From: Blastocatellia bacterium | Lineage (GTDB): Bacteria > Acidobacteriota > Blastocatellia > UBA7656 | Length of the DNA stretch: 64,000 bases | Assembly (NCBI GenBank): GCA_963737945.1 | Contig: CAVTUR010000030.1 | Coordinates: forward strand, 22,193 to 86,192 | Direction: 5' to 3' | In this document: positions 41,044 to 61,200 of the stretch, one piece after another | Numbering within the stretch: the first letter of the stretch is position 1 | How the letters are laid out: each line of letters begins with the position of its first letter | Notes under the pieces: generated by a model | Told to the model about the DNA's origin: nothing | Databases searched by the model: none | The model's input: the letters and a program-made list of their open reading frames with translations, nothing else | Program-made: the position numbers and the translations under genes

Positions 41044-41550
41044 CTAAATCTCCCAGTCAGCGCGATCTCGCTCCTTAGCGATTCCACCTTCGATGATCGG
41101 CTTCCGTCTTTTGATCGAGCCACAGATCGGATCGCCCTTCTTGCCTGTCATGTCGATTACTACTTTTAGCGGGCGGTTCTTGTCGAGTGCGGCCTGAAGG
41201 TGATCCCAAGTCAGATGGTTCAGGTGGATCTTCGCCCGTCGAAACATTGCGAACTCACCATTGGGGCCCATCACTCCCCACGATAGATAGAAGAACCTCT
41301 CCTGAGGCGTACCCTTTGCAAATGGCCCCAGGAAGTTTGGAGACCCGCCGGGTTGTCTTGTGATCCTGAACACCGGACGAAATGTCACTTTCTTTCGATC
41401 GGCCGGCACCGCTTCTATTACTTCGTTACCTTTCTGAATCCCGAGATAAACCGGCTCGTGTTTTCCAGCTGCAGTATTGTAAGGATCCACGAAACAGCTC
41501 CCCGGAAGATTGCGACATATTACTTCAATTGTCACCTCACCGTTTTCCAT
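41044..41550 (-). CDS. DUF5990-like protein
   Basis: Likely start MENGEVTIEVICRNLPG. VYLGIQKG..., NFLGPFAKGTPQERFFYLSWG...FAMFRRAKI resembles DUF5990. Confidence 0.65.
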   Translation of the reverse strand: MENGEVTIEVICRNLPGSCFVDPYNTAAGKHEPVYLGIQKGNEVIEAVPADRKKVTFRPVFRITRQPGGSPNFLGPFAKGTPQERFFYLSWGVMGPNGEFAMFRRAKIHLNHLTWDHLQAALDKNRPLKVVIDMTGKKGDPICGSIKRRKPIIEGGIAKERDRADWEI

Positions 41551-41597
41551 CCACTCTTCTCCGCAACACAGGATCAACAAAACGAGATTAGAAAACC

Positions 41598-44399
41598 TTA
41601 CAGCTCTACCTTACGCAGTCGCAACGCGTTGCCGATGACCGACACTGAGCTGAAACTCATCGCGGCGCTTGCGATCATAGGACTCAACAGAAGCCCAAAC
41701 ACTGGATAGAGCGCTCCAGCAGCGATGGGGATTCCAAGAGCGTTATAAATGAACGCGAAGAAAAGATTCTGCCGGATGTTGCCCATGGTCGCCCGGCTCA
41801 GCTTGCGTGCGCGCGCGATGCCCCTCAGGTCGCCCTTTAAGAGGGTGATGCCCGCGCTCTCGATAGCCACGTCCGTGCCCGTGCCCATCGCAATTCCAAC
41901 CTGAGCCTGAGCCAGGGCCGGCGCATCGTTTACGCCGTCGCCGGCCATCGCCACCAGGCGACCCTGAGCCTGGAGACGTTTCACCACCTCGCCCTTCTGT
42001 TTGGGCAAAACGTCGGCTTCAAAGTCATCTATGCCCAGCTTTCGAGCGACCGCCTCGGCAGTCGTCCGATTATCGCCGGTGACCATTACGATGCGTATCC
42101 CATCCTCGTGCAGCTCTCGAATTGCCTCGGCCGTAGACTCCTTGATCGGATCAGCAACGGCCAGCAAACCGGCGAGCCGGCCGTCCACGGCGACAAACAT
42201 CACCGTCTCGCCCTCTTTGCGCAAAGCTTCTGCGCGCTCGCTCAAACTGCCAGCATCGATTTTCAGTTGCTCCAGCAGCTTGCTATTGCCGAGGGCAACA
42301 AGGTGACCGTCGATCTTTCCAACAACGCCCTTTCCGGTTATGGATTGAAAGTCCTCGGCTTCAGACAGCTCCAATTCTCTCTGTTCCGCGCCGGCTATGA
42401 TTGCCGCGGCCAGCGGATGCTCGCTTCCCCGCTCGATGCTGGCGGCCAGCCGCAACAACTCCGACTCACCAATCCCATTCAAAGGCAGCACCGAGGTAAG
42501 TCGGGGTTTGCCTTCGGTCAACGTACCGGTCTTATCCACAATGAGCGTGTCGATCTTCTCCAGCACCTCGAGGGCTTCTGCATTCTTGATGAGCACGCCT
42601 GCTGTAGCGCCGCGGCCTGTTCCCACCATGATCGACATCGGCGTCGCAAGCCCCAGCGCGCACGGGCACGCGACTATCAGCACAGCTACCGCATTGACGA
42701 TGGCGTGGGCCAGCCGTGGCTCAGGTCCTGCGAGACTCCACACGACAAACGTGATGATGGCCGACACAATGACGGCCGGAACAAAGTAGGATGAGACCGT
42801 ATCGGCGAGACGCTGAATCGGGGCGCGGCTGCGTTGAGCCTCGCTCACCATCCGGACGATCTGAGCCAGAAGCGTTTCGCTGCCGACCCGCTCCGCACGC
42901 ATTATGAAGCTGCCTGTTCCATTGACAGTACCACCCGTGACCTTATTCTCTTTGCTCTTCTCCACGGGAATGGACTCGCCGGTCACCATCGACTCGTCTA
43001 CGGAACTCTTGCCTTCGAGGATTATTCCATCCACGGGGACCTTTTCTCCGGGGCGAACTCGGAGCGTGTCACCCGGTTTAATGACATCCAAAGAGATCTG
43101 TTCTTCTGCCCCGTCATCGCGGATGACTCTCGCGGTTTTGGGAGACAGTCCGAGCAGGGCTTTGATCGCGCTGCTCGTCTTGCTGCGCGCCCGCAGTTCG
43201 AGAACCTGTCCCAACAGCACCAAAACGACGATCACCGCGGAGGTTTCAAAATAGACCCCTACTTGACCGCCGTGCCCGCGCAACGAAGCCGGGAAGATGC
43301 TCGGAAAGAAGGTAGCAATGACGCTATACCAGTAGGCCACTCCGGTGCCGATGGCGATGAGCGTGAACATATTGAGGCTCCGATTGACGATCGAGGCCCA
43401 ACCTCGCTGAAAAAACGGCCAGCCTCCCCACAACACGACAGGTGTTGCGAGGGCCAACTGGAAAAGCGTAAGCAACCGCATCGAGACCGCGTGCTGCAGG
43501 GGCTGACCCGGGATCAAATCCGACATCGCGACGAGGAGCAACGGGGCGGTCAGATACAAGCCGATCTTGAACCGGCGGGTCATATCTTCGAGCTCTTCGT
43601 TCTTCTCTTCACCGCCACCGACGGTTCTTGGTTCCAGGGCCATTCCGCAAATCGGACACGAGCCAGGCGCCTCCCTCACGATCTCCGGGTGCATCGGGCA
43701 GGTGTATTCCGTTCTAGTCGCTGGAATTGAAACCGATGGTGGGTCAAGGGCCATGCCACACTTAGGACATGAGCCTCGTCCCGGCCGGTGAACCTCCGGA
43801 TGCATCGGGCAGGTGTACTCCCCTTTAGTCTTCGACGGGGTAATAACCAGGGGTTCCAGCGACATCCCACACTTGGGGCATGCGCCGGGGCTGCTTTGGT
43901 GAACCTCCGGGTGCATTGGGCAGCTAAATTCGGATTTCGGCGGCGCCGGTCCACTGCCCGGGAGTTCAAGCGACATCCCACACTTCGGGCATTTTCCCGG
44001 ATTGCTTTGGTGAACTTCGGGGTGCATCGGGCAGCTATATTCGGGTTTCGCCGGCGCCGGTCCAGTGCCTGAGAGTTCAAGCGACATCCCGCACTTGGGG
44101 CATTTGCCCTGATGCCTCTGGTGAACCTCCGGATGCATTGGGCAGCCATATTCAGGCTGTATCTGCGCGGCTCGAGGGTCTAACCTTTGGAGTAACATTC
44201 CGCACTTCGGACATGCGCCCGGAGTCGCCTGGTGAACCTCCGGATGCATCGGGCAGGTGTATTCCGCATTCCCGGCCGGCGAAGCGGGCACCATCGAATC
44301 AAGAGCCATCCCACACTTCGGGCACGACCCCGGGCTATCCTGGCGAACCTCCGGGTGCATAGGGCAGATGTGTTCGTTGCTGTTCTTTTCAGCGTCCAT
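41598..44399 (-). CDS. copA: Cu(I)/Ag(I)-translocating P1B-type ATPase with seven N-terminal CPMHPE..CPxCGM repeats
   Basis: [33 protein letters not shown] (TM7) and MSFSS (TM8), the P1B-1 signatures. Confidence 0.95.
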
Positions 44400-44656: not shown

Positions 44657-45382
44657 TCACTGCACCAGGATTTTTCCGCGCAGCATACCAATACCGCAAG
44701 TAAAGGCAAATTCGCCCGACTTACGCGGCGTGAGCTGAATGACAACCGGTTCGTTCAACGGTAGCTCTTGCTTTTTGTCATAGTCAGGAATCAACACCGC
44801 GGTACCGCAGGTAGTCTTTGACTCACGCACAAAGGTAATGCGAGCCGTAACACCCCGCTTTAGTTCCAGGCTGGCCGGTTCATATCCACCGTCTGTCACC
44901 TTGACGGTGAACGCCTGGATCTCGGAGTCATCCTGGCCGGCGGGTTTCTGGTGTTGGGCGAATGGTTGCTTTGCTTCCGACTCAACGACTTCAATGGAGT
45001 CTACTTTGAGATACCGCTTGCCGTCAGCTTCACGCGTAATTCCAGTGGCTTTCACCTGTTTAGCAATGTAGTCGAGCCAGTCCCCTCGTTGTGGCGCCAG
45101 TTTGCCCGTCTCAAGCAAATACAGCGTGATTCCGTTCGCGCCCGCAACGGCGAGCGCTTGTGCCTTGCCCTTCCTGGCACAGTCCACGGCACACTTCAGA
45201 TCGCCGTCGTTGCCGTATGGGGTCACCTTTCGATCTGCTTCGAACCAGCACGAAGAGCAAACCACCTGCCCTTCAAGCGTAACCGAAGCCTCGGCCTTTT
45301 CCTGAGCTATCGTTGCGTTGCCAAACAGCGCAAGCGTCACACACAACGCAATGCTGATCAATAACAATTTCTTCGTTCTCAT
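44657..45382 (-). CDS. secreted Cys-motif protein with C-terminal cupredoxin-like domain
   Basis: Start MRTKKLLLISIAL... after AGGAGA. GQVVCSSCW...CAVDCARKG, then VKVTDGGYEP..LELKRG...TCG...FTCGIGMLRGKILV. Confidence 0.8.
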   Translation of the reverse strand: MRTKKLLLISIALCVTLALFGNATIAQEKAEASVTLEGQVVCSSCWFEADRKVTPYGNDGDLKCAVDCARKGKAQALAVAGANGITLYLLETGKLAPQRGDWLDYIAKQVKATGITREADGKRYLKVDSIEVVESEAKQPFAQHQKPAGQDDSEIQAFTVKVTDGGYEPASLELKRGVTARITFVRESKTTCGTAVLIPDYDKKQELPLNEPVVIQLTPRKSGEFAFTCGIGMLRGKILVQ

Positions 45383-45431: not shown

Positions 45432-47312
45432 TCAGTGATGCATCTTCCCCGGCCGGAAGCGCAAGAAGACATGAAAGCTCGTCGGGTTTGAACCGTAGCC
45501 TGACTCTAAGGCTGTTGGCACGTGGTAGACCGTCACATCCGCCCCAACACCCACTCGCAGTTTGGTGTCGGCAATGATGTCGCGCACTCCTCCAAAAGTA
45601 AATGCGCCAACCCGAAAGGACTGCTCAAAGCGGTCGCCTATTTGGAAGCCACCTCCGATCGGGTGAAACCCATCAAGACCCGGTCGGCCGAATATGTTTT
45701 CCTCGAGCAGTCCTTGCTTGTCCACCAGCTCCATCCTCGTGTACAGGTAGTTCCTATCAAGAAAGTTCGCCGTCGACTCGAGCAAATAGGCGTTCGAGTT
45801 ACCGTGACGCTCGTGATTGCGGCCCCAGATCAGACTCGACGCCCAGTTCCCATCATCCCACGAACGATTGTGAGAAACCGAGGCAGTCACCCGCCGCAGG
45901 ATGCCAGGTTCGAGTATTTCCGGATTGACCAGGTGGCCATACGAAACCTGCATCGTCCAGTCCGGTGTTGGCGTAAACCAGACTCGACCGCTCCATGAAT
46001 CGAGCTTGCCCATTTCAATGTCTTTGCGATTCTCATCGGGCTCTGCACCGCGAAATAGCGAGCTTTCAACCCGGAATCGCCACGCTGTCACTCCGGCAGT
46101 GATCACCCCGTGGCTTATGTGTGTGGAGTCTTGCCAATGATGTCCAAGCGGCGCCGCCGGATTCTCCGCCGCCGACATTCGATGCATGAATGCCGTCGGC
46201 CCGAGCGCCGGCTCGGCGACAGGCCCGCCGTAGAAGTTGAGAGCGACATGCTCGGACAACCTAATGTTGTAGGCGGCAGCGAGTTCCATAAAGAGGTCGT
46301 GCGGGTGTTGGGCGTCGATGATGGGCCGCCCCTCGAAGGTTTCTCCTGTCTGGAAAAGCTCAGGAAAGCCGCGCCTCGGTGTAGTCCACGGTTCGGCTGA
46401 AACCATTCCGCGCAACATCAACTGACCCACGCCTGCCTTTCGCTCCGCCATGATCATAAACCAGTTTTGCGACTCAGCCTTGTTCACACCGCGCGGACCG
46501 CCCTGATGATTGAACCCCGCGATCAGGTTGCCGTGAGCCATGATCATCCAGTCATCTTTCATCCAATGCCACATATGTCCCGGCGCGCTCGCCGGCATGA
46601 GGCTAGTCCCCGAACCGACGGCAGACATGGAGCGAAACGGCCCGCCGGTGATCGTGCTCATCATTGCACTCATGTCATGCCCTGTGTGCGCGTCGCCAGT
46701 ACCCGCCTTCTCCGTGCCCATTGTCGACATGTCGTGCCCTGTGTGCGCGTCCTGAGTGCCTGCCTTCTCCTTGTCCATCGTCGACATGTCATGAGCCTCG
46801 GGCTCCGGATGGTGGTGTTCATCTCCGTTGCCATCGCCATGCTTGTGGCGTGCACTCGGAGGCACTGCTGCTTCGAGCTTTTTTCTACCTTCGGGTGTGA
46901 GCTTTGGAAGTGCCCTGAGAAACAAGATCGTCTGCCAAATCTCCGTCGGGTTGTGAGTCTTACCAAAAGCCGGCATGGCTGTGCCTGGAACGCCGCGAGA
47001 AATCTGGCGAAACAATTCGGCATCCGATCTAGACTGCACCTTGCCGGAAGTAAGGTCGACCGCGCCGACAGCTCTCCCCTTCTCGATATCGGCTTTGCCG
47101 GTTGAGCCATGACAGCTAGCACAGTGCGCGTCAAAGTGGTCGAGCCCCAATGCTGTGTTCTTCTCGGTCGGATGAAGCGGGTTTCCGGTCTGAGGCCCAT
47201 TCGTAAGCGAGACGGCGTACGTAGTTCCCCGGTGTACGAAGTGTCCTGGCGCCAGTGCGGAAACCACAATCATTACCGCGAGCCTGATGACCCGCGTCTG
47301 CTGCGACCTCAC
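45432..47312 (-). CDS. cytochrome c / His-Met-rich linker / probable outer-membrane beta-barrel fusion protein
   Basis: Probable GTG start at 47312 after AAGGAG. CASCH heme motif with GTAMPAF distal Met; HKHGDGNGDEHHH and HDMS repeats; aromatic-rich beta region (GFNHQGGPRG, QHPHDLFMEL, HHWQDSTHI) ending HVFLRFRP. Confidence 0.75.
   Translation of the reverse strand: MRSQQTRVIRLAVMIVVSALAPGHFVHRGTTYAVSLTNGPQTGNPLHPTEKNTALGLDHFDAHCASCHGSTGKADIEKGRAVGAVDLTSGKVQSRSDAELFRQISRGVPGTAMPAFGKTHNPTEIWQTILFLRALPKLTPEGRKKLEAAVPPSARHKHGDGNGDEHHHPEPEAHDMSTMDKEKAGTQDAHTGHDMSTMGTEKAGTGDAHTGHDMSAMMSTITGGPFRSMSAVGSGTSLMPASAPGHMWHWMKDDWMIMAHGNLIAGFNHQGGPRGVNKAESQNWFMIMAERKAGVGQLMLRGMVSAEPWTTPRRGFPELFQTGETFEGRPIIDAQHPHDLFMELAAAYNIRLSEHVALNFYGGPVAEPALGPTAFMHRMSAAENPAAPLGHHWQDSTHISHGVITAGVTAWRFRVESSLFRGAEPDENRKDIEMGKLDSWSGRVWFTPTPDWTMQVSYGHLVNPEILEPGILRRVTASVSHNRSWDDGNWASSLIWGRNHERHGNSNAYLLESTANFLDRNYLYTRMELVDKQGLLEENIFGRPGLDGFHPIGGGFQIGDRFEQSFRVGAFTFGGVRDIIADTKLRVGVGADVTVYHVPTALESGYGSNPTSFHVFLRFRPGKMHH
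46671..46793 (-). repeat. 57-bp tandem repeat encoding His/Met-rich 19-aa units
   Basis: CATGTC(A/G)TG at 46671, 46728 and 46785. The protein reads HDMSTMDKEKAGTQDAHTG / HDMSTMGTEKAGTGDAHTG / HDMSAMM. Confidence 0.9.
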
Positions 47313-47401: not shown

Positions 47402-49093
47402 TCATCGCACCACGATTTTTCCGCTGAGCATCTTCATTCCGCAGGTGAAATCGAACACACCCGCTTTCGCGGGCAAAAACTCAATCACCACCGGTTCCTT
47501 AACCGGCAGATCCCTTTTGATACTGAACTCAGGGATCGCGACCGATGTGGCGCAGGTCTCTTCGATCTCTCGCACAAAGGTCAATCGAGCGGGAATGCCT
47601 CGCTTTAGCTCGACCCTGTCTGGCTGAAACCCCTTGTCGGTGACTTTTACGGTAACGACCTGTACCCCGGCTTCTGGTTGCGCCCCCCGAGCAGCGATTT
47701 GCGACTGGTCGACCGGTGGGATGGAAGAAGGGGAAGCCGGCGATGTTGACTGAGCGGGGTTCAGCTTCAGGCTCTCAGCTCGAAGCAGAAAACTACCTTC
47801 GGTCACGACTCGCTCGCCTGCATTCACCCCGGTGTACACCGGCAGCATGCCATTGACCTCTTGTCCGGTGGAGACCTCGCGTTGCACAAATGAGCCCGGC
47901 TGATCAGTGGCCACAAAGACTATTTGCTTTGCGCCGATGGTCTGGACCGCCGAACCAGGCACCGTCGGAACTGCGTGCGGGCTCGTCACTGCTTGAACAG
48001 CGCTGCTGAAGTTCACGTCGACAAACATTCCCAGACGGAGCACCTCTCTCGGATTTGCTAGCTCTACGCGAACCTGAGCAGTGCGGGTTTGCGGATCGAC
48101 TCGGGGGTCGATGTAGGAAACACGCCCCTTAAAGGCTCGCGCGGGATAAGCCGAGGCCGTTATCAGCGCAGGCGTTCCGATCCGGACCGTCTGGAAGTCC
48201 TTCTCGTAGACTTGTGCGATAACCCACACCAATGACAAGTCAGCAACGCGGAACATCTCCTTGCCCATCATTACTACTTCTCCGGTATTGACCGATCGCG
48301 CGATCAAGGTCCCCGATCCTGGAGACTCGACACCGATAAGTGGCTTCGAGATCTTCTGCGCAATGCGAATCTCATCGACTTGTTTCTCACTAAGACCGAG
48401 TAGAATTAACCGCTCTCTCGCGGAGGCGAGGTTTGCCTCCGCGTTCTTTCTCATTCTAGTGGTCTGCTCGAGTTCTTCCCGGCTTGCCGCACCAATCTCA
48501 ACAAGTTCTATCGTGCGCATGTGGTGCTGGTGGTGCTCTTCGACTTCGGCGGCCATTTTCAGATACGCCGCCTCCGCATCAGCTAACTCACTGCTGAAAA
48601 TCGTTGCGAGGGTCTGTCCCTTGACAACACTATTGCCCAGCTCGACATCGATCCGTCTTACTATGCCGCCCACGATCGGAAAGACAGGCACTTCCTTGTA
48701 TGCGTTGGACTCAACGGTTCCGGTTGTGCGAATGCCGGTGGAGCCCTCAGCAGGCATATCCATCTGGTCGACGACAACCTCGATCTTTAGCTGGGCGTTC
48801 GCCAGTTTGTCCGGAGACAGCGTGACCAGCGTTTCACCTGGCCTGGCAGCGGTCCCGGTTGGCGACCCATCCGGACCCGGCACGGACTCCTCGGCCGGCG
48901 CGGGAACAGGGCGGCCGGCGATTGGACCCTGACTCGATCCACGCGTCAGCGACCACGCCGCCACGATCGCGAGCGCAGCCAAAAGCACTATTGCCACCAC
49001 TACCCATCGCTTGAGCACAAAAGATCGCTGAACCTGCGGCTCCTCTTTTGTCTCACCATGATTCTCAACGTTGTCCTGATCGTCCATTGTCAT
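47402..49093 (-). CDS. heavy-metal RND efflux periplasmic adaptor (CusB/CzcB family) with C-terminal cupredoxin-like domain
   Basis: N-terminal TM anchor; GQTLATIFSSELADAE, VADLSLVWVIAQVYEKD, IDPRVDPQTRT, LRLGMFV. C-terminal VKVTDKGFQP...TCA...FTCGMKMLSGKIVV. Confidence 0.9.
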   Translation of the reverse strand: MTMDDQDNVENHGETKEEPQVQRSFVLKRWVVVAIVLLAALAIVAAWSLTRGSSQGPIAGRPVPAPAEESVPGPDGSPTGTAARPGETLVTLSPDKLANAQLKIEVVVDQMDMPAEGSTGIRTTGTVESNAYKEVPVFPIVGGIVRRIDVELGNSVVKGQTLATIFSSELADAEAAYLKMAAEVEEHHQHHMRTIELVEIGAASREELEQTTRMRKNAEANLASARERLILLGLSEKQVDEIRIAQKISKPLIGVESPGSGTLIARSVNTGEVVMMGKEMFRVADLSLVWVIAQVYEKDFQTVRIGTPALITASAYPARAFKGRVSYIDPRVDPQTRTAQVRVELANPREVLRLGMFVDVNFSSAVQAVTSPHAVPTVPGSAVQTIGAKQIVFVATDQPGSFVQREVSTGQEVNGMLPVYTGVNAGERVVTEGSFLLRAESLKLNPAQSTSPASPSSIPPVDQSQIAARGAQPEAGVQVVTVKVTDKGFQPDRVELKRGIPARLTFVREIEETCATSVAIPEFSIKRDLPVKEPVVIEFLPAKAGVFDFTCGMKMLSGKIVVR

Positions 49094-49187: not shown

Positions 49188-50585
49188 TTACGCCGAAGGA
49201 ACCGGCGTGCCTGCTACGCGTTCTATTTCCACGAACGCGTTGAAGTACTCCTTGAGTACCTCGGTGTATCCGGTCTCGACTTCAATAAACCGTCTCTGCT
49301 CGCTGATATAGTCGAGGGCGCTTTTCTGGCCAAGCGTGTAAGTCTGATGGATCACATCGAGATTGCGCTGGGCCTGACCGCGAACGCCATCGCGATAGAC
49401 CTCAAGCGCTGCCTGGGCTCCCGCAAACCGCGCGTACGCAGCGGCCACCTCGTTCCGCACAACTAGCTCGGCAAACTCGCGTCGCGCGCGCGCTGCCTCG
49501 GCCGTTGCAAGCGCAGCTTCGATGTTGCCCTCATTCCTGTTTCTTACCGGCAGGCTCAATCGAACGCCAAAGGTTAGATTGTGAAAAACTCCCATCACCG
49601 GAACGCGCGCCCCGGCATCATTGAAGCCAAACACGCCGTATCCGCTGCTCATTCTCTCGTAGCCGGCGAAGATGCTTGCATCAACTTTGCCTTCGGTGCG
49701 AGCTTGCTCGATCTGCGCGGCCGCGAGCTGCTCGGCGGCGCGAGCCGCCGACAGATCAGGCCGGGTTTCGAGCGCGTTCCGTACCGCGTCGCTCTTCAGC
49801 GCCGGTTGTCGCGTGGCATCGAACTCACCTCGCAAACGCAACGGCTCGCCGGCAGGCATACCAATCACTCTCTTGAGTTCGAGGAGCGCCACCTCGGCGC
49901 GGCTCTCGAAGCCGATGCGCATCCCGTCAACCCGATTCACCTCGACAAGCAGAAGGTTTTGCTCGAGCGGCGCCGTCTTGCCAAGATCGACCCGCGCCTT
50001 AACGAGTCGATGCGAGTCTCGAGTGAGCGCAAGCAAATCTTCGGTGAATTTCAGATTACGAGCGGCGGCTATGGCATCGGCATACTTCACTCGCGTTTCG
50101 GCGGACAGCTTGCGCGCGAAATCGCCTATTTCGCTCTCACGCATTTCAAGCTCCGCGGAAGCGACGACAACTCTTGCGCTTCGTCTTCCGCCAAGCTCCA
50201 GGGGCAGCTCCGCTCCGATCATCGCCTTGTTACCTGGCGTGTTTGCCGCGTGCATACCGCTCGCTTCGAGGATCGGGTTCGGTTTGAGACCCGCCTGGCG
50301 AAGCCGTCCTCGCGCCTCGGCGATCATCTGCCTCGCTGCCGAGAGCTCCCCGTTGTGCGCAAGCGCGTAACGAACAAGCGCATCCGCGGTGAGCCCGTTC
50401 ACCGAGTCAATATATTGCGAGTACATCGACCGCGGCTCGGCAATTTCAGAGTTCGTTGACGGCTTTAGACCGAGGACAAGGCCGACGTCTTGTCCGCCCG
50501 ATTGCGATTGAGCGATTGGCGCCGAAAGCATCAGCAAAAACAGCGCTCCAGTTGGTTTGAATAAAACGTTCATCATCAGCTCCAT
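49188..50585 (-). CDS. TolC-family outer-membrane efflux protein (CusC/CzcC-like)
   Basis: Likely start MELMMNV at 50585. QAGLKPNP, LSLPVRNRNEGNI and YTLGQKSALDYI TolC repeats; located between the RND pump and the adaptor. Confidence 0.9.
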   Translation of the reverse strand: MELMMNVLFKPTGALFLLMLSAPIAQSQSGGQDVGLVLGLKPSTNSEIAEPRSMYSQYIDSVNGLTADALVRYALAHNGELSAARQMIAEARGRLRQAGLKPNPILEASGMHAANTPGNKAMIGAELPLELGGRRSARVVVASAELEMRESEIGDFARKLSAETRVKYADAIAAARNLKFTEDLLALTRDSHRLVKARVDLGKTAPLEQNLLLVEVNRVDGMRIGFESRAEVALLELKRVIGMPAGEPLRLRGEFDATRQPALKSDAVRNALETRPDLSAARAAEQLAAAQIEQARTEGKVDASIFAGYERMSSGYGVFGFNDAGARVPVMGVFHNLTFGVRLSLPVRNRNEGNIEAALATAEAARARREFAELVVRNEVAAAYARFAGAQAALEVYRDGVRGQAQRNLDVIHQTYTLGQKSALDYISEQRRFIEVETGYTEVLKEYFNAFVEIERVAGTPVPSA

Positions 50586-50586
50586 A

Positions 50587-50653
50587 TTCTTTGCGTTCTG
50601 TGCGAAGAGAATTCTCCGCGCCAAGGCGCCAAGAACCGCAAAGAACGCAAAGA
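50587..50653. repeat. inverted CGCAAAGA octamer element (element L)
   Basis: TCTTTGCGTTCTGTGCG (50588-50604) versus CGCAAAGAACGCAAAGA (50637-50653), a 16/17 inverted match. Confidence 0.85.
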
Positions 50654-50658
50654 CAACC

Positions 50659-53600
50659 TCAGTCATTCTCGCTTCGCTTTATCTCCCGCTCGCGAAGCCA
50701 GTAGAAGATCACCGGGGTCACAATCAACACGTGAAGCAGCGATGACACCATCCCGCCGAGCACCGGAGTCGCCAGCGGTTTCATCACTTCGGCGCCGGCA
50801 CTCGTGCTCCACATTATCGGCAGCAGTCCCGCGACCACCGTGCTAACCGTCATCACTTTCGGACGCAGCCTTAGTAGCGCTCCTTCCATCACCGCTTGCT
50901 TGAGTTGCCCGCGCGTCAGCGTTCCATCGTGTCCCTGCTTCTTGCGCTCAACCGCCTCTTCCAAATAGATCACCATAACCATGCCGGTCTGAACCGCTGT
51001 GCCAAACAACGCGATGAATCCAACCCACACTGCAACTGAAAAGTTGTAGCCCAGCAGGTAAAGGAGATACACGCCGCCGGTAAGCGCGAACGGCACTGCG
51101 AGCAATACATGCGCAGCTTCGATAAACGAGTGATAGGTCAAGTACAGCAGCACAAAGATCACGATCAGCACGATCGGCATCACCAGCAGCAAGCGAGCCC
51201 GCGCCCGCAGCTGGTCCTCATACTGCCCGCTCCATTCGATGTAGTAACCCGCCGGGAGCTGGACCCGATCACGCAGCGCCGTGGTCGCTTCTTCGACGAA
51301 GCTGCCCACGTCGCGGCCCCTGACGTTTAGCAGCACCGTGCCCCGCAGCAACCCGTTCTCGCTCGAGATCATCGACGCGCCGTTGACTTGCTTTATGCTT
51401 GCCAACTGGGCAAGGGGTATCTGCGCGCCGCCGGGCGCCGGCACAAGCAATTCGCCGAGCGCCTCAGCGTTCGCTCGAAACTCCTGCGCGTAACGCACTC
51501 GCGCCGGGAATCTTCGTCGTCCTTCTATAGTCACGGTAAGGTCGGTTTCCCCGATGCCGGTATCCACGATGGTCTGGATCGCGCCGACGTCGATGCCGTA
51601 TCGCGCGGCAGCCTGCCGGTCGATCTTGATGTCGATGTAAGGCTGGCCGGTGAGCGGCTCGGGTGAAACATTCGCCGCGCCCGGTACCGTCTGCAACACC
51701 GAAGCAACCTCGCGCGACTGTCGCTCGAGCTCGGCCAGGTCGCTTCCGTAGATCTTCACACCGATCTCGGTGCGTATCCCGGTCGTCAGCATCTCGATGC
51801 GATTGATGATCGGCTGCGTCCAGATATTAGTCACGCCGGGCATCGTCAGTTTGTCATTCATCTCTCCGATGAGCTTTTCGCGAGTCATCCCGGGGCGCCA
51901 GTGGTCGGGCTGTTTCAGATGAATAATGGTCTCGTTCATGTCGACCGGAGCGGGATCGGTCGAGGTCTCCGCTCTGCCGGCCTTGCCGGTCACCCATTCA
52001 ACCTCGGGAAATGACTTGATCGTTCGATCCTGCATCTGCATTACGCGCAAGGCCTCGTCAATCGAAATAGCCGGATCGGTGATCGGCATGTACATCAAGT
52101 CGCCCTCGTTGAGCTCAGGCATGAACTCGCTTCCGATCGGGTGAATCGTCTTAACGAGCGGTCCTACGATGGGGATGTTCGCGGTAGCAGATCGCGCCTG
52201 CGGCAACCAGCTTGCCGAAGTCGCAAGCAACACTGCGACGGAGAAAAAGAACAACGCGCATGCAAGCGTCAACGCTCGATGAGCGAGCGCCAACGTCAGC
52301 ACCGGACGATAACCTCGCTGCAACACACGCATCACCAGGTTTTCTTCTTCAGAATGAAATCGTCCGCGCAAGAGCAACGTGCACAATACCGGCACAAGGG
52401 TCACCGCGATAATCGTCGCCGCCAGCATCGCAAATGTCTTGGTAAACGCGAGCGGATGAAAGAGCTTCCCTTCCCGCCCGGTCAACGCGAACACTGGGAC
52501 AAAGGCGAGGATGATGATCGTCATCGAAAAGAAAATCGGACGCCCGACCAATCGAGTCGAATCGAGAACCGTTTCCCATACCCTTTGTCTGTCACGCGGA
52601 TCCACGTGCCGCTTTTCCAGATAACGAAATGCGTTTTCGGTGACTACTATCCCGGCGTCGACCAGCACTCCAATGGCGATCGCGATGCCCGATAACGACA
52701 TCAGGTTTGAACTGATTCCCAGGTTGTGCATGAAAAGAAAGGATAGGAGCACCGCCAACGGCAGCGGGATCGTCACGATCAGAATCGAGCGGAAGTGAAA
52801 GAGAAAGATTATGTGAGCGAGCGTCACCAGCAACAGCTCTTCGATGAGAGCGCGCTTGAGCGTAGTGGTCGCCCGGAGGATCAACTCGGTTCGGTCGTAA
52901 AACGGTGTGACACTCACTCCCTGCGGCAGGCCAGGTTTGAGCACTTCCAGCTTTGCTTTTACAGCGTCAATCACCTCGAGGGTGTTCACCCCGTATCGGG
53001 CAATCACGACGCCACCAACTGCTTCCTTGCCGTCACGGTCGAGCGCTCCAACTCGAAAGGCGTTGCCAATACTCACATCAGCAACATTGCGGACGAAGAC
53101 CGGAGTCCCGTCCGAGCCTCCGATCACGATGTTCCCGAAGTCCGCCACCGATTCGATTAACCCGACACCGCGCACGATGGACCACTGGCCGTTTTGTTCG
53201 ATGACATTCCCGCCGACATTTGAATTACTCCGCTGGACCGCTTCTATGACTGTCGAGAGCGGGATCGAATAAGCACGAAGCCGATTCGGATCGACGTCGA
53301 TCTGATATTGCTGAACATGGCCTCCAACGGACGCCACTTCGGCTACACCGGGAACCGAATTGAGCTGATAGCGAAGAAACCAGTCTTGAAGCGAGCGGAG
53401 ATCGCGCAAGCTGTAGCCTTCGCCGTCAACCGTGTACCAGAAAACCTGTCCGACGCCGGTCGCGTCAGGGCCTAACGTGGGCAGGACGCCTTCGGGGAGT
53501 TGTTTTGCTGCGAGGTTCAACCTCTCCGCGACTCGAGTGCGGGCCCAGTAGAGATCGATCGAGTCTTCGAAAATCACGTTGATCATCGAGAACCCAAACG

Positions 53601-53859
53601 CCGATTGCCCGCGAACCGCTCTGACCCCGGGCAAGCCTTGCAGCACCGTGGTCAGCGGATACGTAACCTGGTCCTCGACCTCTTGCGGGCTGCGGCCAAT
53701 CCAATCGCTAAAGACGATCACCTGGTTATCGGACAGATCCGGGATCGCATCGACCGGAGTCCGGATAAGTGCCCAGTAGCCCCACCCCGCGAGCAGCACG
53801 TATGCCGCGACGATGATAAAGCGGTTCTTGAGAGAGAATTCTATAATGCGATTGATCAT
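50659..53859 (-). CDS. cusA: CusA/SilA-type heavy-metal RND efflux pump
   Basis: [36 protein letters not shown]. Met positions in GDLMYMP, PVDMNET and RIEMLTTG match the CusA Cu/Ag Met triad context. Confidence 0.92.
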
Positions 53860-53866
53860 CGGTTAG

Positions 53867-53964
53867 TCAGTGGTCCGTAGTCCGTAGTCCGTAGTCCGTA
53901 GTTCTTAAGTGCGCAGTCAAGGTTGACTTCGAGCTACGGACTACGGACCACGGACTACGGACTA
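53867..53964. repeat. inverted TCCGTAG heptamer array (element M)
   Basis: TCCGTAG x4 (53874-53901); CTACGGA CTACGGA CCACGGA CTACGGA (53934-53961). Confidence 0.95.
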
Positions 53965-54387
53965 TTTCGCGTTCACGCTCATCGTCGCGTGTTCAGTCCC
54001 GCGCGATCCCTGAAAGCTAATCATCGCTTCCCAGCTCCCACCACTCTCCACACTGACGCGAACCTTGAACCTGCCCGGCGTATCGGTTGTGGTCAGTGCC
54101 GCGACCTCGTTCATCTCGGCCATTGAACCCATCGCTGGCATATGAAACTTGAGCGAGGCAGCCGGAGTGTCGACGGGCTTGCCAGACTCATCGGTGAATG
54201 AAAGCGTGAGATCGTTCTCCCCGCTTTTGATCTCGCCGTTGCCGCTCGAAAGCGCGATCGTCGTATCGCCTGACTTCGTCGACTTGATTACCTTTTCGGC
54301 GTTTGAAGAGCCGGACCGCTCACACGCGCTCAAGACTAGAAGGGGAACCGCGATCGCGAAAAATATGACAAAGACTCTGGACTTCAC
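53962..54387 (-). CDS. FixH/YtkA-like lipoprotein
   Basis: GTG at 54387 after GGGAGG; lipobox LSAC; LKFHMPAMGSMAEM...GRFKV...GGSWEA. Confidence 0.75.
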   Translation of the reverse strand: MKSRVFVIFFAIAVPLLVLSACERSGSSNAEKVIKSTKSGDTTIALSSGNGEIKSGENDLTLSFTDESGKPVDTPAASLKFHMPAMGSMAEMNEVAALTTTDTPGRFKVRVSVESGGSWEAMISFQGSRGTEHATMSVNAK

Positions 54388-54598
54388 TGAAAACCTCCCG
54401 AAAGGATGAGCGTCTGGTGTCTGGCACTTACGCTCGTCAAACAATGTGACTCGTCAATCAATGTTGCGACCAGGGTCGTGCGCTCTGGACGCCATGACAG
54501 ATCTACAGCAGCATGGACCCCGAACGTCGTCGGTACTCAAATCGATGTGAGCGTTTTTTGAAGGGTAGTTTGTGCCGCGAATGGGCACACTTCGGCTT

Positions 54599-54967
54599 TT
54601 AGATCAGGAGAATGCCGATTCTGAGGTATAGGTGTGTCGACTGAGCGATGGTGCGAGGTGGGGCGAGTAGAGATCCTGATGGCTGCGTCGAATAAGAGCT
54701 GGCCGAGCCAACATTGACCGGTGAAGGACTCTGATCGTGGCGCTGGGTGCGGTTCAGGCTTGCCGCGGGCGACGGTTGACTCTCACCGTGCTGATTGCAT
54801 TCGGTAAGACAACGAACCTTCGAAGGGCTCACTTGCGGAGCCATACGCCGAGTTGCGCAACAGGTACCGCAGCCACTATCACATTCGACGGCGGCGATGG
54901 CCGCGGCCGCGAGAGAGTTGCCAGCGACCAACAGCGTAAGCGTAAAGATTAGCAGCCTTCGAATCAT
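54599..54967 (-). CDS. small exported Cys-rich protein leading the metal-efflux genes
   Basis: MIRRLLIFTLTLLVAGNSLAAAA...CDSGCGTCC...CLTEC; C-terminal PPR...LYLRIGILLI. Confidence 0.65.
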   Translation of the reverse strand: MIRRLLIFTLTLLVAGNSLAAAAIAAVECDSGCGTCCATRRMAPQVSPSKVRCLTECNQHGESQPSPAASLNRTQRHDQSPSPVNVGSASSYSTQPSGSLLAPPRTIAQSTHLYLRIGILLI

Positions 54968-55227
54968 TAACGGCTCCAGTCTATCAGCGCTTCGGGTGAG
55001 GGTCAATTCCGGTCCTAATTCCGAATGAAGCTGAGTTTCGCATTAGCTGGAGTGGCGCGACGGATCGATGCTTCGTGTGACACGGCTCTCGAACCTTTGT
55101 CAAGAGGGCTGACTACGATCACTTCGCTTCGGTCGGGTAGGCCACATAGCGGCTGCCTATCGCTAGACCCAAGACAGCATTCGCCCAAGTACGTAATCGC
55201 ACACATCCAAAATACTCGCACCCGAAA

Positions 55228-58200
55228 TCACTGACAGATGCAGCTATTGTCCCGGGTGTTTCTGTCGGTGAGCGTACACCTCACCGTACCAGGCGGCGCG
55301 CTCATGCTTCCCGAACCTTTGTGTGTTGCCTCGTCGTCTTTCACCAACACTCGTCTGTCTCCCGGATTGTGTTCCAGCGTATAGAGGCTCCCTCTTATCG
55401 TCATTGTCCCCTTACCCGTATATGTCACTCCGTGGCAACAGAACCTATAGTCTCCGGTAACCGAGTTGATCAATACGACCGTGCTCGGATCGCTATCATC
55501 CTGTACACACAGATCGAACACATTCACCCGGAACGTGCACATCGCCGTATTCCCCGATACATCTGTCGCCGTGCAGGTGACAGTGTTAACTCCGAGCGGG
55601 AAGCAGCTTCCGGACGGAGGCGTGCAAACCACGCTCACTCCGGGACAGTTATCCGCCGCTGCCGGGGCCGGGTAGTTCACCGCCACGCAGGAGTTCCCTG
55701 CCTGGGCTGTCTTTGTCGTTATGTTCGCCGGGCAGGTGATCGATGGCGGCTGCATGTCGTTAACCATTACCGTAAAGCTGCAATTCGCGTCAGGCGCTAT
55801 TCCGTTAGTCGCCGTGCAGTTGACCATCGTACCGCCCTTCGGAAACACGCTTCCTGACGGAGGCGTGCAAGTCACGGTCGGCGTCGGCAGACCGGTTGCT
55901 GTAACACTGAAGGTCACAGTAGTCGAGCATTGATCCGGCGCAGTGTTGGCTACAACCGGACTGCTCGGGCAGTTTATCGCCGGCGGTATGCCTATTTGGA
56001 TGGTCACATCCGCTTGTGAAGACGGACATGGCGGATTGGAGATCGTCCATCGCAACACTATCTGTCCGCTACCCCCTGTATGAGTAAATGTCGCATTCGG
56101 GGTTGAAGCGGTCGGGTTGAAGACGCCGCTCGCTCCACCGGTGACTATCGTCCACAAGCCGGTCCCTATCGCGGGGCTGTTACCGCCAAGCGGCGCGGTC
56201 GTACCGTTCGGAGGAATGATTTGATTCGAACCGGCGGTAGCAGTGGTCGGTGGCTGAGTGATCATAAGAATCACATCGGCGCTAGCGCTGGAGCAGGGAG
56301 GATTGACCACAGTCCACCTCACAGTTATCGGGCCGGAGCCGCCGCTGTGCGTGAACGTAGCGCCGGGCGTATTGGCGTTCGGATTAAACGTTCCCTTGGC
56401 TCCGGCTGTGACTATTGACCATGTGCCGATCGCCCCGCCCGTCGGGGTATTGCCACCAAGGGAGGAGCTTGTGCCACCCGCGCAGATTGTCTGCGGCCCC
56501 CCAGCGGTTGCGATGGGCTGCTGCTTGACGGTGATCGTTACGTCCGCGAATGAATCAGGACACGGCGGATTAGAGATCGTCCACCTTACGACGATCACGC
56601 CTGCTCCGCTTGTCGGTGTAAAAGTGGCGCCTGGGGAGTTCGCGCTCGGACTGAAAGTTCCAGTTGCTCCGCCGGTCACGATCGTCCAGAGCCCTGTTCC
56701 CGAGGACGGCGAGTTGCCTCCAAGCGTAGCAGTAGCGCTGCCTTCGCAGATTGTCTGAGGCCCTCCGGCAGTTGCGGTCGTCGGAGGTTGCTTGACCGTC
56801 ACCGTCGTCACCGCGGATGGAGCGCCGGTGCAACCGTTGGTCGTAACCGTCACGGTGTAATCACCCGACGCGGTTGCGACATATTGTTGAGCTGTCGCTC
56901 CCCCAATCGGATTACCATTGAGCAACCATTGATTGCCGGTCGCGCTGCTCGAGGTTAACGTCACGCTGTCCCCCGCGCAGAAGGTTGTCCCGCTGCCCGG
57001 CGTGATCGTGGGAGTCGCAGGAATCGGGTTGACTGTCACCACGGTGGGGGCCGAAGGAGCGCTGGTGCATCCGGTTGTTGTAACCGTGACCGTGTAAGCT
57101 CCCGATGCGGTGGCGATATACGTCTGATTCGTGGCACCGCCGATGGGATTGCTATTCAGGTACCATTGATTGCCGCTGGCGCTGCTCGAGGTCAGCGTCA
57201 CGCTACCCCCCGCACAGAAAGTCGTCGGGCCGCCAGGCGTGATCGTTGGAGTCGCCGGAATCGGGTTAACTGTAACCGCCACCGGAGCCGACGGATCGCC
57301 GGTGCAACCGCTCAGTGTAACCGTCACCGAATAGTCCCCTGAGGCGGTGGCGACATAGGTCTGGTTGACCGCGCCGCCGATAGGGTTGCCATTGAGGAAC
57401 CATTGATTGCCGACCGCGCCGCTCGAGGTCAGGGTGACGCTGCCCCCGGCGCAGAAGGTCGTCGGGCCTCCAGGAGTGATCGTGGGTGTCGCCGGAATCG
57501 GGTTGACCGTTACGACTGTGGGCGCCGAAGGAGCGCTGATGCATCCGGTTGTTGTCACAGTTACCGTGTAAGCTCCCGAAGCGGTGGCAACATACGTCTG
57601 ATTGGTGGCGCCGCCGATTGGATTGCCATTCAAGTACCACTGATTGCCAGTCGCATTGCTCGAGGTAAGAGTAACGCTGCCTCCCGTGCAAAAAGTCGTC
57701 GGGCCTCCAGGCGTGACCGTCGGCGTAGCCGGAATCGGATTGACTGTCACAGTTGTTGGGGCCGAGACGCCGCCGCTGCACCCACTCGTCGTTACCTGAA
57801 CGGTATAGTCACCGGAGGCGGTGGCGACATAGGCCTGAGATGTCGAGCCCCCAATGGGGTCGCCGTTGAGAAACCATTGATTGCCGCTGGCGCTGCTTGA
57901 GGTCAGCGTCACGCTGCCGCCGGCGCAAAAAGTCGTCGGGCCGCCGGGAGTGATCGTCGGAGTCGGCGGGGTCGGTGTGATCGTGATGCTCACCTCCGCG
58001 AATGAATCCACACAAGGCGGATTTGAAATCGTCCATCTCAAGACGATCGGTCCGGTTCCGCTCGTGTGTGTGAATGTGGCAGCCGCGGAGCCTGCGCTCG
58101 GGATAAAGGTCCCCGTCCCGCCGCTCTGCACCGTCCAGGTTCCTGTTCCAATTGCGGGAGCGTTGCCGCCAAGCGTAGCAGTCGTGCCGAGAGCGCAGAT

Positions 58201-61200
58201 TGTCTGCGGCGCGCCAACTGTCGCCGGCGTCGGGGGTTTCTTGACGGTCACCATAGTGGCGGGTGAACTTGTGTTGTTGGCGCTATTCTGATCGGGTGTC
58301 GTGGAAGTGACGCTCGCCGTATTTGACAGGATCGTTCCATCAGATACCGCGCCGTCAATACTCACGATGACCGTGAACGTGGCGGCGTCGGCGTTCGGAG
58401 ACGAACCCGTCCTCGCGAACATGAGAGCGCCGTTACCACCTGCCACGACGCCGTCAGTACGGGTCCAGTTGGCCGGGGCGGGCGCGGATACGAGGCTTGT
58501 GCCGGCGGGCATCACATCGCTCACCACTACGCCGGTGGCCGCGCTTGGCCCGGCATTGGTGAAGTTGATCGTGTAGGTAATGTTGGCGGTTGAGCAAATG
58601 GAGCCCGATCCGGCGGACTTGGTCACACCCACGTCAGCGCACGTAACCGTCGTCATCACAGTATTCGAGGTGTTGTTCCCCGGATTGGAGTCGGTGGTAG
58701 TTGTGGAGATGCTGGCGGTGTTACTCACGCTCGGCGCGCAGCCCGGGTTCGCCGTCGCCATTATCGTTATCGTCGCGGAAATCCCGGACGCAAGTGACGG
58801 GAAGGTCACCGTCCGGTTGGCGCCAGCCCCGCCGCAGACTCCTCCCATGTCCGAATTGCACGAGATAACGGTTAAGCAGGCCGGTAGATCGTCAGTCACT
58901 ACGACATTGGCGGCCGCGCCAGGACCCAGATTACTTGCGGTCAGCGTGTAGCTGATCGTGTCGCCGCAGGAAGCCGTCGCCGGCCCGCTCTTGGTTATGG
59001 TTACGTCAGCGCAAGTGTTAACCGTCACCGTCTTGCTGCAAGTGCTGCTGCACGAGAGAGACGTATCATTCACCATCAGCATCAGGTTGTAGGAGCCTGC
59101 CAGGCCCGCCGTGACATTCACGGACTGGCTTGTGGTCGAACCTACAATCGAACCATTGCCAGTGATCGACCACACATAGGTCAGATTTGCTCCGGACGGC
59201 GCGGTGTAAGTATTGTTGGCAGTAGCTTCGCAAACCGGATCGGGTCCGTCGATCGTGCAACTGACCGTGGCGAAGTTCAAACACCATCCATCCGCTATTT
59301 GCCCCGTCCCTCCCAGTGCGTCATCCACGACATAGAGACTCCACACGCCGTTTGGATCGGACCCGGAGAAGGCGGCCGCAAGCGTCGTGTTCGATCCTGG
59401 CGTCGGAGCCGGCGATGGGAACGAATCTATGACCTCGAAATTCGTCGGCTTAAAGGTCCCGCTGACCAGCGGGCTGCCATCCGGGAGCGAGTTCGAGGCG
59501 GCATCGCTAAAGGTCAAATTCAGACCGCTCACATCGGCTGCCCCGCCCACGTCCGACATCAGGATGATGTTTTGGCCGTTCGGTCCAACCAGCAGGATAT
59601 CTATGTCGTCCGGATCGGCGTGCGACAGATTGCTGAGCGAGACTGTCAGCGAGCAGATTGAGCTCAGACCAGAAACAAAAATGCGAGAGGGATACGGTCG
59701 CGCAATACCGCCGCCGGTTACGTTTGACGAGTCGGGAATTGAAATCACGCCGGGGTTGCAGAACTGATTGCCGCTTATCGTGGTGTGATTGTTGATCTGT
59801 TGTGTCAACGAACTGCTGCTAGTGTTGAACTGGCCGGGGGCTCCGCTGTAATTAGCCATGATGATGCGGTCACCCTCAGTGGCGAAGCTGGTAATGCAGC
59901 TGGCGTGACCGGCCCCATCGAGCGGGACGTTTGCGCAGATTGTTGCTCCGGTGGACGCGTCCACAAAGCTAACCGTGCCCACCGTGACCGGGTTGCCGCC
60001 GCTTGTGACGGTCGCGCTGAAGGTGGTCGAGTCGTTAGGTGACGTCGTAAACGAAGGATTGACGGACGATGTGAGCGACGTACTGCTCACGGCGTCCCCA
60101 GTGGTGGTGAACGTTAAACACCAGCCGCCCGCGAAGGTGTTGGTGTCGAACCCGCTGTCATCAAATACATAAAGGCTCCACGTGCCATTTGGGTTGGCCC
60201 CGTTGAAAACGGACCCCAGAGTAGCAGAACCGACTGGCGCGGGGTTGTTCGAGACGCTTGGGGCGGGCGACGGAAACGTATCTCCTACGCCGTAATTCAC
60301 TGGTTTGCTCGACACGGTGCTGTTCGGCGCTCCCCAGGGCGTCATGCTCGCGCCAAGAGCCGAACCTGCTAAATCGTCAAGATTCACCGTGACGTTTGTG
60401 TTCGTTGAGTTCTCGCCGGCGTCGGAGACGAGAATGATGTTCTGCCCGAGCGGGCCGACCAGCAAGATGTCGAGATCGCCCGGGTTGACATGGGTGGCGT
60501 TCTTGAGAGTGACCACGAGGTGGGAAATACTGCCGCCCAGACCGGACACACTGATATGCGAGGGGTAGGGCACGCCCGTGCCGCCGCCCGGTCCAGGCGT
60601 GGCCATACTATTTGTGTTGCAGTACATGCCGGTGCTCGGGTTTGAGGTTGGGAAATCGACGGTCTGCGTTACACTCGCACTGCTCCCGAAAAACGACGGG
60701 TCGGGATTGTAGGTCGCGGTGATTACGTGGCTGCGTTCGGTGAGGCTGTTGGCAGGAGCAGCATACTGAGCTTGACCGGTGCCGTTCAGCGCGACATTTG
60801 CGGCCAGTGTTGTCCCAAGCGTGGTGTCGCTAAAACTCACCGTACCGACAGTCACATTGCTGCTATCGCTGGTCTTCACAACGTGCGCCGTAAAGGTAAC
60901 GGCATTTGTAGTCATCGATGGATTCAGCGACGACACGACCGTCGTCGTTGTCGGTGAAGCCGCCACAGCAGTCGTTATGTTCAGGGTCCAGCCACTATCG
61001 CAAGCCCCGCCGTCGCCGCCGGCATCGTCGAAAATATACAGGCTCCAATTGCCGTTCGGATTCGTGCCCGCAAAGACCGATGTAAGGGTTGCGCTTCCCG
61101 TCGGCGCCGCGTTGTTGTACGGTGAGCCCGGAGCCCCGGGGAAACTGTCCCCCACCCCGACCGGATTATCGTAGTTGGTCGGCTTGTATGTTGCGGTGGC

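Follow-up and report, generated by a model that had tools for sequence, protein, structure and literature searches.

A c-type cytochrome, a histidine- and methionine-rich tether and a predicted outer-membrane porin-fold barrel in a single chain of a Blastocatellia copper gene run

Introduction

Two described types of outer-membrane protein come closest to the subject of this article, a protein of 626 residues encoded in a run of copper genes of a soil Blastocatellia bacterium (Acidobacteriota). Its gene lies in a stretch of 64,000 nucleotides (assembly GCA_963737945.1, contig CAVTUR010000030.1, positions 22,193 to 86,192), which is called the window here and in whose numbering all coordinates are given. 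The first of the two is PcoB, a barrel of 12 strands with a disordered N-terminal domain rich in histidine and methionine, on which copper efflux depends and which may serve as a docking site for the Cu(I) oxidase PcoA (PMC12509749). The direction in which PcoB transports copper is disputed, as the authors of its structure proposed Cu(II) import on the grounds that it is difficult to see how passive export could run against a gradient (PMC9210255; compare PMC12509749). The second is Cyc2, which consists of a signal peptide, one CXXCH motif and a porin barrel, and is marked by the motif AXPXFAR[Q/K][T/Y] five residues upstream of CXXCH and by PXL four residues downstream of it (PMC8406198).

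The protein from the window is made up of four parts which, from the N to the C terminus, are a signal peptide, a class-I monoheme cytochrome c, a disordered tether and a beta-barrel of 392 residues. Its role is probably in the handling of copper within the envelope of the cell.

Architecture of the fusion protein

The gene occupies positions 45432-47312 on the minus strand of the window as a single intact open reading frame (ORF) for 626 residues, and a database record (P0002) is 100% identical to its product. The stop codon lies at 45432-45434, and the GTG start is preceded, at a distance of about 6 nucleotides, by GGAAGGAGAA, a good Shine-Dalgarno sequence. Residues 1 to about 33 (47214-47312) form a predicted Sec signal peptide with an arginine-rich n-region and a LAVMIVVSALA core; its cleavage site, read from the letters of the sequence, would fall between TYA and VS. 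The full-length AlphaFold2 (AF2) model has a helix at residues 4-27, which corresponds to the signal peptide, and a disordered stretch at residues 27-40.

A class-I monoheme c-type cytochrome domain follows at residues ~41-150 (46863-47192) and is the sole part of the protein that is recognised by Pfam: residues 54-135 match PF13442 (Cytochrome_CBB3) with 37.4 bits against a cut-off of 27, and PF00034 (Cytochrom_C) with 23.0 bits against a cut-off of 21.3. The heme-attachment motif CASCH at residues 64-68 (47109-47123) is the single CXXCH of the chain. About 45 residues further on lies GTAMP (residues 110-114; 46971-46985), in which Met113 is the candidate distal heme ligand, and this combination of a CXXCH and a later methionine motif is that of a class-I c-type cytochrome as judged from its sequence. 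Among the fused relatives, 98 of 109 keep the distal motif in the form xMP[AG]F. By sequence, the relatives of solved structure closest to this domain are small soluble class-I cytochromes, namely c-552 of Kuenenia and ActE of alternative complex III (ACIII), and AF2 folds residues 45-150 well, with a predicted local distance difference test (pLDDT) score of ~95.

Between the cytochrome and the barrel runs a tether of 84 residues (residues 151-234; 46611-46862), which contains 10 histidines, 8 methionines and 8 aspartates and which is disordered in the AF2 model at residues 161-230 (pLDDT 30-46). Histidine and methionine together make up 21% of it, compared with 5-9% of the other parts of the protein. 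After the stretch HKHGDGNGDEHHH at residues 156-168 the unit HDMS(T/A)M occurs three times, at residues 174, 193 and 212, and its period of 19 residues is encoded by a 57-bp tandem repeat in 2.2 copies (46671-46793; 84% matches in Tandem Repeats Finder). In fused relatives the tether measures anything from 68 to 169 residues and its content of histidine and methionine stays between 11 and 23%, so that the composition is kept while the sequence and the length are not. A variable length together with a steady composition is the pattern of a selected disordered metal-binding region and not that of a frameshift product.

That two separate genes might have been joined by a frameshift or a misassembly is suggested only by the 57-bp repeat of the tether, a type of sequence that is prone to misassembly, and we regard such an artefact as extremely improbable. 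The homology search gave 7,781 proteins at E ≤ 0.001 among 8,000 candidates scored, and among the best 120 of these 7,781 there are many full-length fusions, 53-82% identical, from NCBI, JGI, ENA and Logan assemblies. Most of the full-length relatives come from metagenome-assembled genomes of Blastocatellia or other Acidobacteriota, where they are annotated just as 'c-type cytochrome'. A CXXCH precedes the barrel in 109 retrieved proteins, the same continuous ORF is present in more than 100 independent assemblies, and in relatives from the same genus and family the frames run on to 520-708 residues without internal stops, with tethers that differ in length and are all in frame.

There is also a split form. 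In the closest clade that lacks the fusion (locus L004, with barrel P0121) the barrel gene stands alone and has two genes for cytochromes c after it; the free cytochrome c two genes downstream of the barrel shares 39% identity with the fused domain (E = 2e-24). Judged by this homology, the two arrangements are a 'Rosetta stone' pair of fused and split genes. At a Pyrinomonadaceae locus (L017) and at a Thermoanaerobaculia locus (L076) a homologous gene for a cytochrome c stands directly downstream of the barrel, and a FastTree phylogeny of the barrel domain requires at least five gains or losses of the cytochrome fusion. Because of the more than 100 independent full-length relatives, the variable in-frame tethers and the split form, the fusion is not an artefact; by these comparisons it is real and under selection. 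An earlier note, made from the letters of this DNA alone, had listed a signal peptide, CASCH, a distal GTAMP and 19-residue HDMS repeats, each of which is present in the ORF, and had taken them to belong to a fusion of a cytochrome with a barrel. The fusion is borne out by its occurrence in those other proteins, and the frameshift or assembly error that could have undone it was not found.

The barrel and its family

The C-terminal part (residues 235-626; 45435-46610) is predicted to be an outer-membrane beta-barrel of porin fold with about 18 strands. It was modelled by AF2 from an alignment of 54 diverse relatives, and the result is all-beta with 19 strand segments in DSSP, a mean pLDDT of 93.8 and a predicted template modelling score (pTM) of 0.91; in the full-length model the barrel spans residues 240-626. 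Foldseek against the PDB gives 251 chains at E ≤ 0.001, the top 50 of which are all outer-membrane porins or constructs on the OmpF scaffold, with BpsOmp38, OmpF, OmpU and OmpK36 among the top matches (best E = 4.8e-12; TM 0.5-0.68). The two methods therefore agree on the barrel that the earlier reading of the sequence had supposed. The connections between strands are by turns short and long, as would be expected of periplasmic turns and external loops, from which we arrive at about 18 membrane strands; in the model the short first strand and the last one probably join to make a complete strand, as they do in OmpF. The barrel residues have no match in Pfam or NCBIfam, and a search of the PDB with the profile of our family alignment (A2) returned no matches at E ≤ 10.

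Two conserved segments stand out in the barrel. The family signature QHPHD (residues 335-339; 46296-46310) forms a tight turn between two strands; Q335, H336 and H338 are invariant in alignment A3, and Q101 and H102 are invariant in alignment A2. The other segment is a histidine-rich loop at residues 362-401 (46110-46229), conserved as GGPV.EPALGP.AFMHR...APLGHHWQDSTHI.H, in which H377, H391, H392 and H398 are invariant and which AF2 models as a connection of 33 residues that links strands and contains short helices. R378 and D395 are further invariant residues of the barrel. This loop is a candidate for a constriction or a metal site within the barrel, and would then lie in the lumen.

The barrel belongs to an unnamed family, which we define by alignment A2 and call the 'QHPHD' metal-linked porin family. 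The 626-residue protein matches the A2 profile with 593.7 bits (E = 3.7e-178) over positions 33-435 of 436, and both the QHPHD and the HHWQDSTHI segments are present. When the barrel alone was searched against 1.84 billion representative proteins, 3,102 clusters at 50% identity were found at E ≤ 1e-3, of which 726 have E ≤ 1e-30, and the names of ten representative clusters are all 'hypothetical protein' or missing. The pattern DxQHPH[DN] occurs in at least 595 species genomes; the matches listed include, from the Acidobacteriota, Blastocatellia, Pyrinomonadaceae, Terriglobia, Bryobacteraceae and Thermoanaerobaculia, and from elsewhere Melainabacteria, Sericytochromatia, Chthonomonadaceae, Binatia and Verrucomicrobia. 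Among closer relatives the mean column identity of the barrel is 63%. Pfam matches, weak ones to Porin_4 in two of 54 members and one to BBP2 in one of 54, imply that the family is a divergent branch of the porin superfamily. Within the class the barrel is a patchy accessory gene, found in 33 of 61 genomes, and the source genome has one copy. The observation made in the earlier note stands as a whole; more notable is the large metal-linked family behind the barrel, which had not been seen in it.

The segment that precedes the barrel core varies within the family. Most members have a short or long tail rich in histidine and methionine, and a minority have other N-terminal additions, namely a Cys-rich domain of ~250 residues, a cytochrome c, or a cytochrome c with an HMBD motif. 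The 16-17 cysteines of the Cys-rich domain (P0123, P0138 and P0144) are arranged in repeats of the pattern CC...C..C...C.C...C..C; Pfam does not recognise the domain, which may be a metal-cluster domain of a new kind. At two loci with such barrels (L088, 996-3161 on the minus strand, and L089, 2683-4587 on the plus strand) the gene of a long YtkA-like protein lies just upstream. In another subgroup (P0162, P0163, P0165, P0189 and P0190) the N-terminal addition is replaced by a C-terminal extension of ~150-200 residues rich in histidine and methionine, for which a match to the STI1/HOP DP domain is weak (27.7 bits, below the cut-off).

Genomic context

The fusion gene stands in a co-oriented run on the minus strand whose genes include those of a small Cys-rich exported protein and a P1B ATPase. 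The copper operon that had been claimed for this locus in the earlier note is confirmed by the finding of a CusA/CzcA pump of the resistance-nodulation-division (RND) type, an OEP protein, a CusB-type adaptor, a CupA-like domain and a Cu-type P1B ATPase. At or near the head of the run lies the gene of an exported YtkA/FixH-like protein (53962-54444; PF13115, E = 1e-10), and then come the CusA/CzcA-family heavy-metal RND pump (50659-53859; TIGR00914, 1141 bits against a cut-off of 701) and the OEP outer-membrane factor of TolC/CusC type (49188-50666; PF02321, E = 6e-38). Directly upstream of the fusion gene is a CusB/CzcB-type RND adaptor (47402-49093), identified by profile searches, which carries at its C terminus a cupredoxin-like domain (FTCGMKM) that is a CupA homologue and keeps the CxMxM motif.

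Directly downstream is the gene of an exported protein (44657-45382) with a Cys-containing N-domain and a CupA-like cupredoxin domain of the Cu(I)-chaperone type (PF13473, 63 bits); it starts with an ATG at 45382 that has a Shine-Dalgarno sequence. Its C-terminal domain aligns over the full length with CupA (PDB 2MRY/4F2E; E = 3.2e-17) and has FTCGIGM, so that CupA-like domains are present on both sides of the fusion gene. The N-domain is not recognised by Pfam, and at three other loci (L009, L014 and L033) it is again encoded directly downstream of the barrel; a link to the DUF5818 gene beside the split form was considered and dropped, as the two have no similarity. Further on in the run comes the Cu-type P1B ATPase (41598-44399; TIGR01511, 620 bits against a cut-off of 397), which has a CPC motif and, at its N terminus, seven tandem HMBD repeats (CPMHPE...CPKCGM; 247 bits), an unusually large number.

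Barrel genes of relatives are found in similar company at some loci. One family member (P0012) has a CusB/CusA pair on one side and an HMBD-ATPase on the other, another (P0086) is encoded directly upstream of an HMBD-ATPase, and among 83 barrel loci of relatives a P1B ATPase is present in 20 and CusA in 9. In the Pyrinomonadaceae group the neighbours include MerR (10 loci), a Redoxin-type thioredoxin (19), PCYCGC (16) and small Cys-rich exported proteins (18), and YtkA also recurs; many Terriglobia loci have none of these neighbours. Within ~1-3 kb of the barrel, the Pyrinomonadaceae loci L008-L040 hold an exported protein of ~106 residues with CC motifs and a protein of 164 residues that ends in CCC, together with a Redoxin/TlpA-like thioredoxin, PCYCGC (PF13798), MerR and a P1B ATPase, and these genes together give the impression of a compact metal island, most of it without annotation.

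Other features of the window lie at the margins of the run. The small exported protein that opens it (54599-55006, minus strand) is not recognised by Pfam and carries the motifs CDSGCGTCC and C...C. Promoter-like sites are no commoner in the run than in shuffled sequence, with 55006-54978 alone well placed and yet not above chance, and none of the terminator-like sites in the run is at a clear operon boundary. Beyond the P1B ATPase follows a DUF5990 gene on the same strand (41044-41580), which may belong to the copper run. Just upstream of the run a gene at 55228-62964, also on the minus strand, encodes a protein of 2,578 residues with DUF11, HYR, P-proprotein, Big_3_5, Ig_7 and FG-GAP domains, which resembles surface or adhesin-type proteins and appears to have nothing to do with the copper finding.

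Proposed function

What was computed, that is, the architecture, the fold of the barrel, the disorder of the tether, the conservation of the heme ligands and of the histidine cluster, the copper context and the recurrent fusion or adjacency of a cytochrome, provides the ground from which we infer localisation, topology, copper binding and the directions of electron flow and of transport. By comparison with PcoA and PcoB, we propose that the cytochrome, the tether and the barrel with its histidine cluster make up an 'oxidise and release' copper device in one chain, a proposal to which we give an even chance. The mechanism supposed in the earlier note, in which the heme changes the oxidation state of copper and the His/Met tether shuttles ions to the pore, would agree with the gene context and with the precedent of PcoA and PcoB. 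It would work alongside the CusCBA pump, the two CupA-like Cu(I)-chaperone domains and the Cu-ATPase of the same run. The soft methionine and histidine ligands of the tether would take up periplasmic Cu(I) from the ATPase or from the CupA-like proteins; the adjacent ferric heme would accept one electron, converting Cu(I) to Cu(II), and would pass it on to the respiratory chain; and the Cu(II), which prefers histidine, aspartate and glutamate as ligands, would leave through the barrel lined with histidine and acidic residues. If the electron goes to the respiratory chain in this manner, the detoxification of copper would be independent of a multicopper oxidase that uses O2.

The proposal agrees with some general properties of its components. 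Heme of the c type is attached in the periplasm and the termini of such barrels face the periplasm, which means that the cytochrome and the tether should both be periplasmic. The potential of the aqueous Cu(II)/Cu(I) couple, about +0.15 V, lies below that of typical class-I cytochromes c, and Cu(I) can reduce ferricytochrome c; the favoured direction of electron flow would thus be from Cu(I) to the ferric heme. In other members of the family the position of the tether is taken by His/Met tails, Cys-rich domains or HMBD, and these features of their sequences would support a role in the handling of copper or other metals.

Several points weigh against this proposal. An outer-membrane barrel has no source of energy, so that export against a gradient is problematic. 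A cytochrome is fused or adjacent to the barrel at only about 9 of 83 loci; most members of the family do without one, which makes the redox function an add-on that is not intrinsic to the barrel. The thioredoxin-like, PCYCGC and YtkA-type neighbours in Pyrinomonadaceae would fit the supply of copper to cuproenzymes equally. From the strand parity of the model there is a hint that the chain passes through the lumen in the conserved segment ahead of the barrel. Finally, among 61 relatives the barrel and strong matches to PF07732, the N-domain of multicopper oxidases (Cu-oxidase_3), have an odds ratio of 0.43 (Fisher p = 0.17, uncorrected for phylogeny); as this complementarity is not significant, replacement of multicopper oxidases beyond the source genome is unsupported and is not claimed as a general rule. 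It speaks in favour of the proposal, on the other side, that in the source genome itself, which is 94.75% complete, neither PF07732 nor PF05275 (CopB) has a match.

The energetic objection to passive export is the reason why we retain an alternative in which the direction is reversed: the barrel would be an entry channel for Cu(II) with a tethered cupric reductase, in that the reduced cytochrome would turn Cu(II) into Cu(I) on the tether, and this Cu(I) would be handed to the CupA-like chaperones for the assembly of cuproenzymes or for CusCBA. The authors of the PcoB structure read that protein as an importer of Cu(II) (PMC9210255). Cu(I) is the form of copper on which CusCBA and proteins of the CupA type act, the gene has a CupA-like domain on either side, and the Redoxin/TlpA-like, PCYCGC and YtkA-type neighbours of the family fit cuproenzyme biogenesis. 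Yet the gene lies inside an efflux run, where an uptake pore would oppose the efflux pumps expressed with it, and relatives have regulators of MerR type. Soft, methionine-rich tethers are, moreover, a typical feature of proteins that serve detoxification, among them PcoB, CusF and multicopper oxidases of the CopA type, and the copA-copB pair of one relative has very similar PHDMKNM repeats. On balance we think import unlikely, though less so than the two readings that follow.

The plan shared with Cyc2 (PMC8406198) raises a different alternative, in which the heme would sit in or beyond the barrel and electrons would cross the outer membrane, so that extracellular Fe(II), Cu(I) or Mn is oxidised, or extracellular metal reduced, either to gain energy or to detoxify metal at the surface of the cell. 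The strand parity of the model would allow the chain to enter the first strand from inside or above the lumen, and at a few loci (L007 and L030) multiheme cytochromes are found near the barrel. Still, PXFAR[Q/K][T/Y] and PXL are absent from 109 of 109 fusions, and the sequences around CASCH in the protein itself, ALGLDHFDAH upstream and GSTGKAD downstream, contain neither motif. The cytochrome is a full class-I domain of ~110 residues followed by a disordered tether of 68-169 residues, the barrel family is mostly free of cytochromes, and the context is that of copper efflux and not of a respiratory or rus-like operon, all of which makes electron transfer of the Cyc2 kind improbable here. We hold it to be no less improbable that the barrel is itself an enzyme with a redox-active metal centre on its invariant histidines, for which the cytochrome would merely donate or accept electrons and no copper would be transported. 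The number of invariant histidines (H336, H338, H377, H391, H392 and H398), together with acidic and arginine residues in the barrel, is indeed unusual, the mean column identity among closer relatives is high and cytochrome partners recur. Against this, most members have metal-binding tails alone and no redox partner, the Foldseek matches are diffusion porins only, and a redox metalloenzyme built on a porin fold is not known to us, though no search was aimed at one.

Returning to the 'oxidise and release' proposal, a wider and distinctly more tentative generalisation would be that the 'QHPHD' barrel founds a new and very large class of outer-membrane copper or metal channels, which replace CopB/PcoB in Acidobacteriota, non-photosynthetic Cyanobacteriota, Armatimonadota and other phyla. 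The forms fused to a cytochrome c would then be heme-based Cu(I) oxidases, independent of O2 and wired to the respiratory chain, that do the job of a multicopper oxidase in the same polypeptide as the exit pore. The protein touches on how copper passes the outer membrane and on how periplasmic Cu(I) is rendered harmless without O2. With a redox module, a disordered tether that catches metal and a pore in one chain, the coupling between oxidation state and passage becomes testable in a single polypeptide. The barrel family, being widespread in soil phyla, deserves a family model and an evaluation as a marker for metal resistance in metagenomes from soil.

Comparison with known systems

The earlier note had held that the architecture is unknown among Cop/Cus/Pco proteins; this is correct, and our literature searches found no description of the architecture or of the barrel family, although the precedents Cyc2 and PcoB had been missed. 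By fold the barrel is best matched by the diffusion porins (OmpF, OmpC, OmpU and BpsOmp38; Porin_4 clan; E = 5e-12 to 5e-9), and its long conserved loop between strands could act as an L3 constriction loop. It differs from them in that it has no sequence match to them, is larger (392 residues, ~18 strands), carries an invariant histidine cluster and metal-binding N-terminal modules, and is found at metal loci and not in a housekeeping role. In systems of the MtrAB or Pcc type, a multiheme cytochrome is threaded through a large barrel that is encoded by a separate gene. The protein of the window, with its single heme motif and its barrel of ~18 strands in one chain, does not belong to this type. 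The CupA and CopA-MBD cupredoxins of Streptococcus pneumoniae (PDB 4F2E, 2MRY and 4F2F) resemble domains of the neighbouring genes and not the fusion protein, and here those domains are exported, are fused to other modules and belong to a Gram-negative-type envelope.

Cyc2, the Fe(II) oxidase of Acidithiobacillus, Zetaproteobacteria and Gallionellaceae, likewise has a signal peptide, one CXXCH and a C-terminal barrel of porin fold, and both proteins are tied to the redox chemistry of metals. Membership of the Cyc2 family is nevertheless rejected on the missing signature motifs. In Cyc2 a barrel of 16 strands is fused directly to a short cytochrome, whereas the cytochrome here is a full PF13442 domain of ~110 residues with its methionine motif, an 84-residue tether comes after it and the barrel of ~18 strands belongs to another, well conserved and mostly heme-free family. 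The genes also differ in their setting, an operon for iron respiration in the one case and copper efflux in the other.

With PcoB and CopB the protein shares an outer-membrane barrel that follows a poorly conserved disordered region rich in histidine and methionine, a copper locus and a periplasmic redox partner. Homology to CopB is not seen: PF05275 has no match at E ≤ 0.01, and hhalign of alignment A2 with a CopB alignment (A4) gives a probability of 37% over 17 columns. CopB occurs in one of the 61 relatives, compared with 33 of 61 for the barrel described here. The sole relative with a canonical CopB (genome G060, locus L087) has it in a copA-copB pair of overlapping genes (11-1255 and 1252-2136), and the PHDMKNMPGM repeats of its CopA oxidase are closely like the HDMSTM repeats of our tether. 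The barrel of PcoB has 12 strands, against ~18 and a porin fold in our protein, and the redox partner PcoA or CopA is a separate, Tat-exported multicopper oxidase, where here a heme cytochrome c is fused into the same chain. The 626-residue protein thus joins a tethered copper barrel of the PcoB type and a cytochrome-porin fusion of the Cyc2 type, on the basis of an undescribed and very large barrel family.

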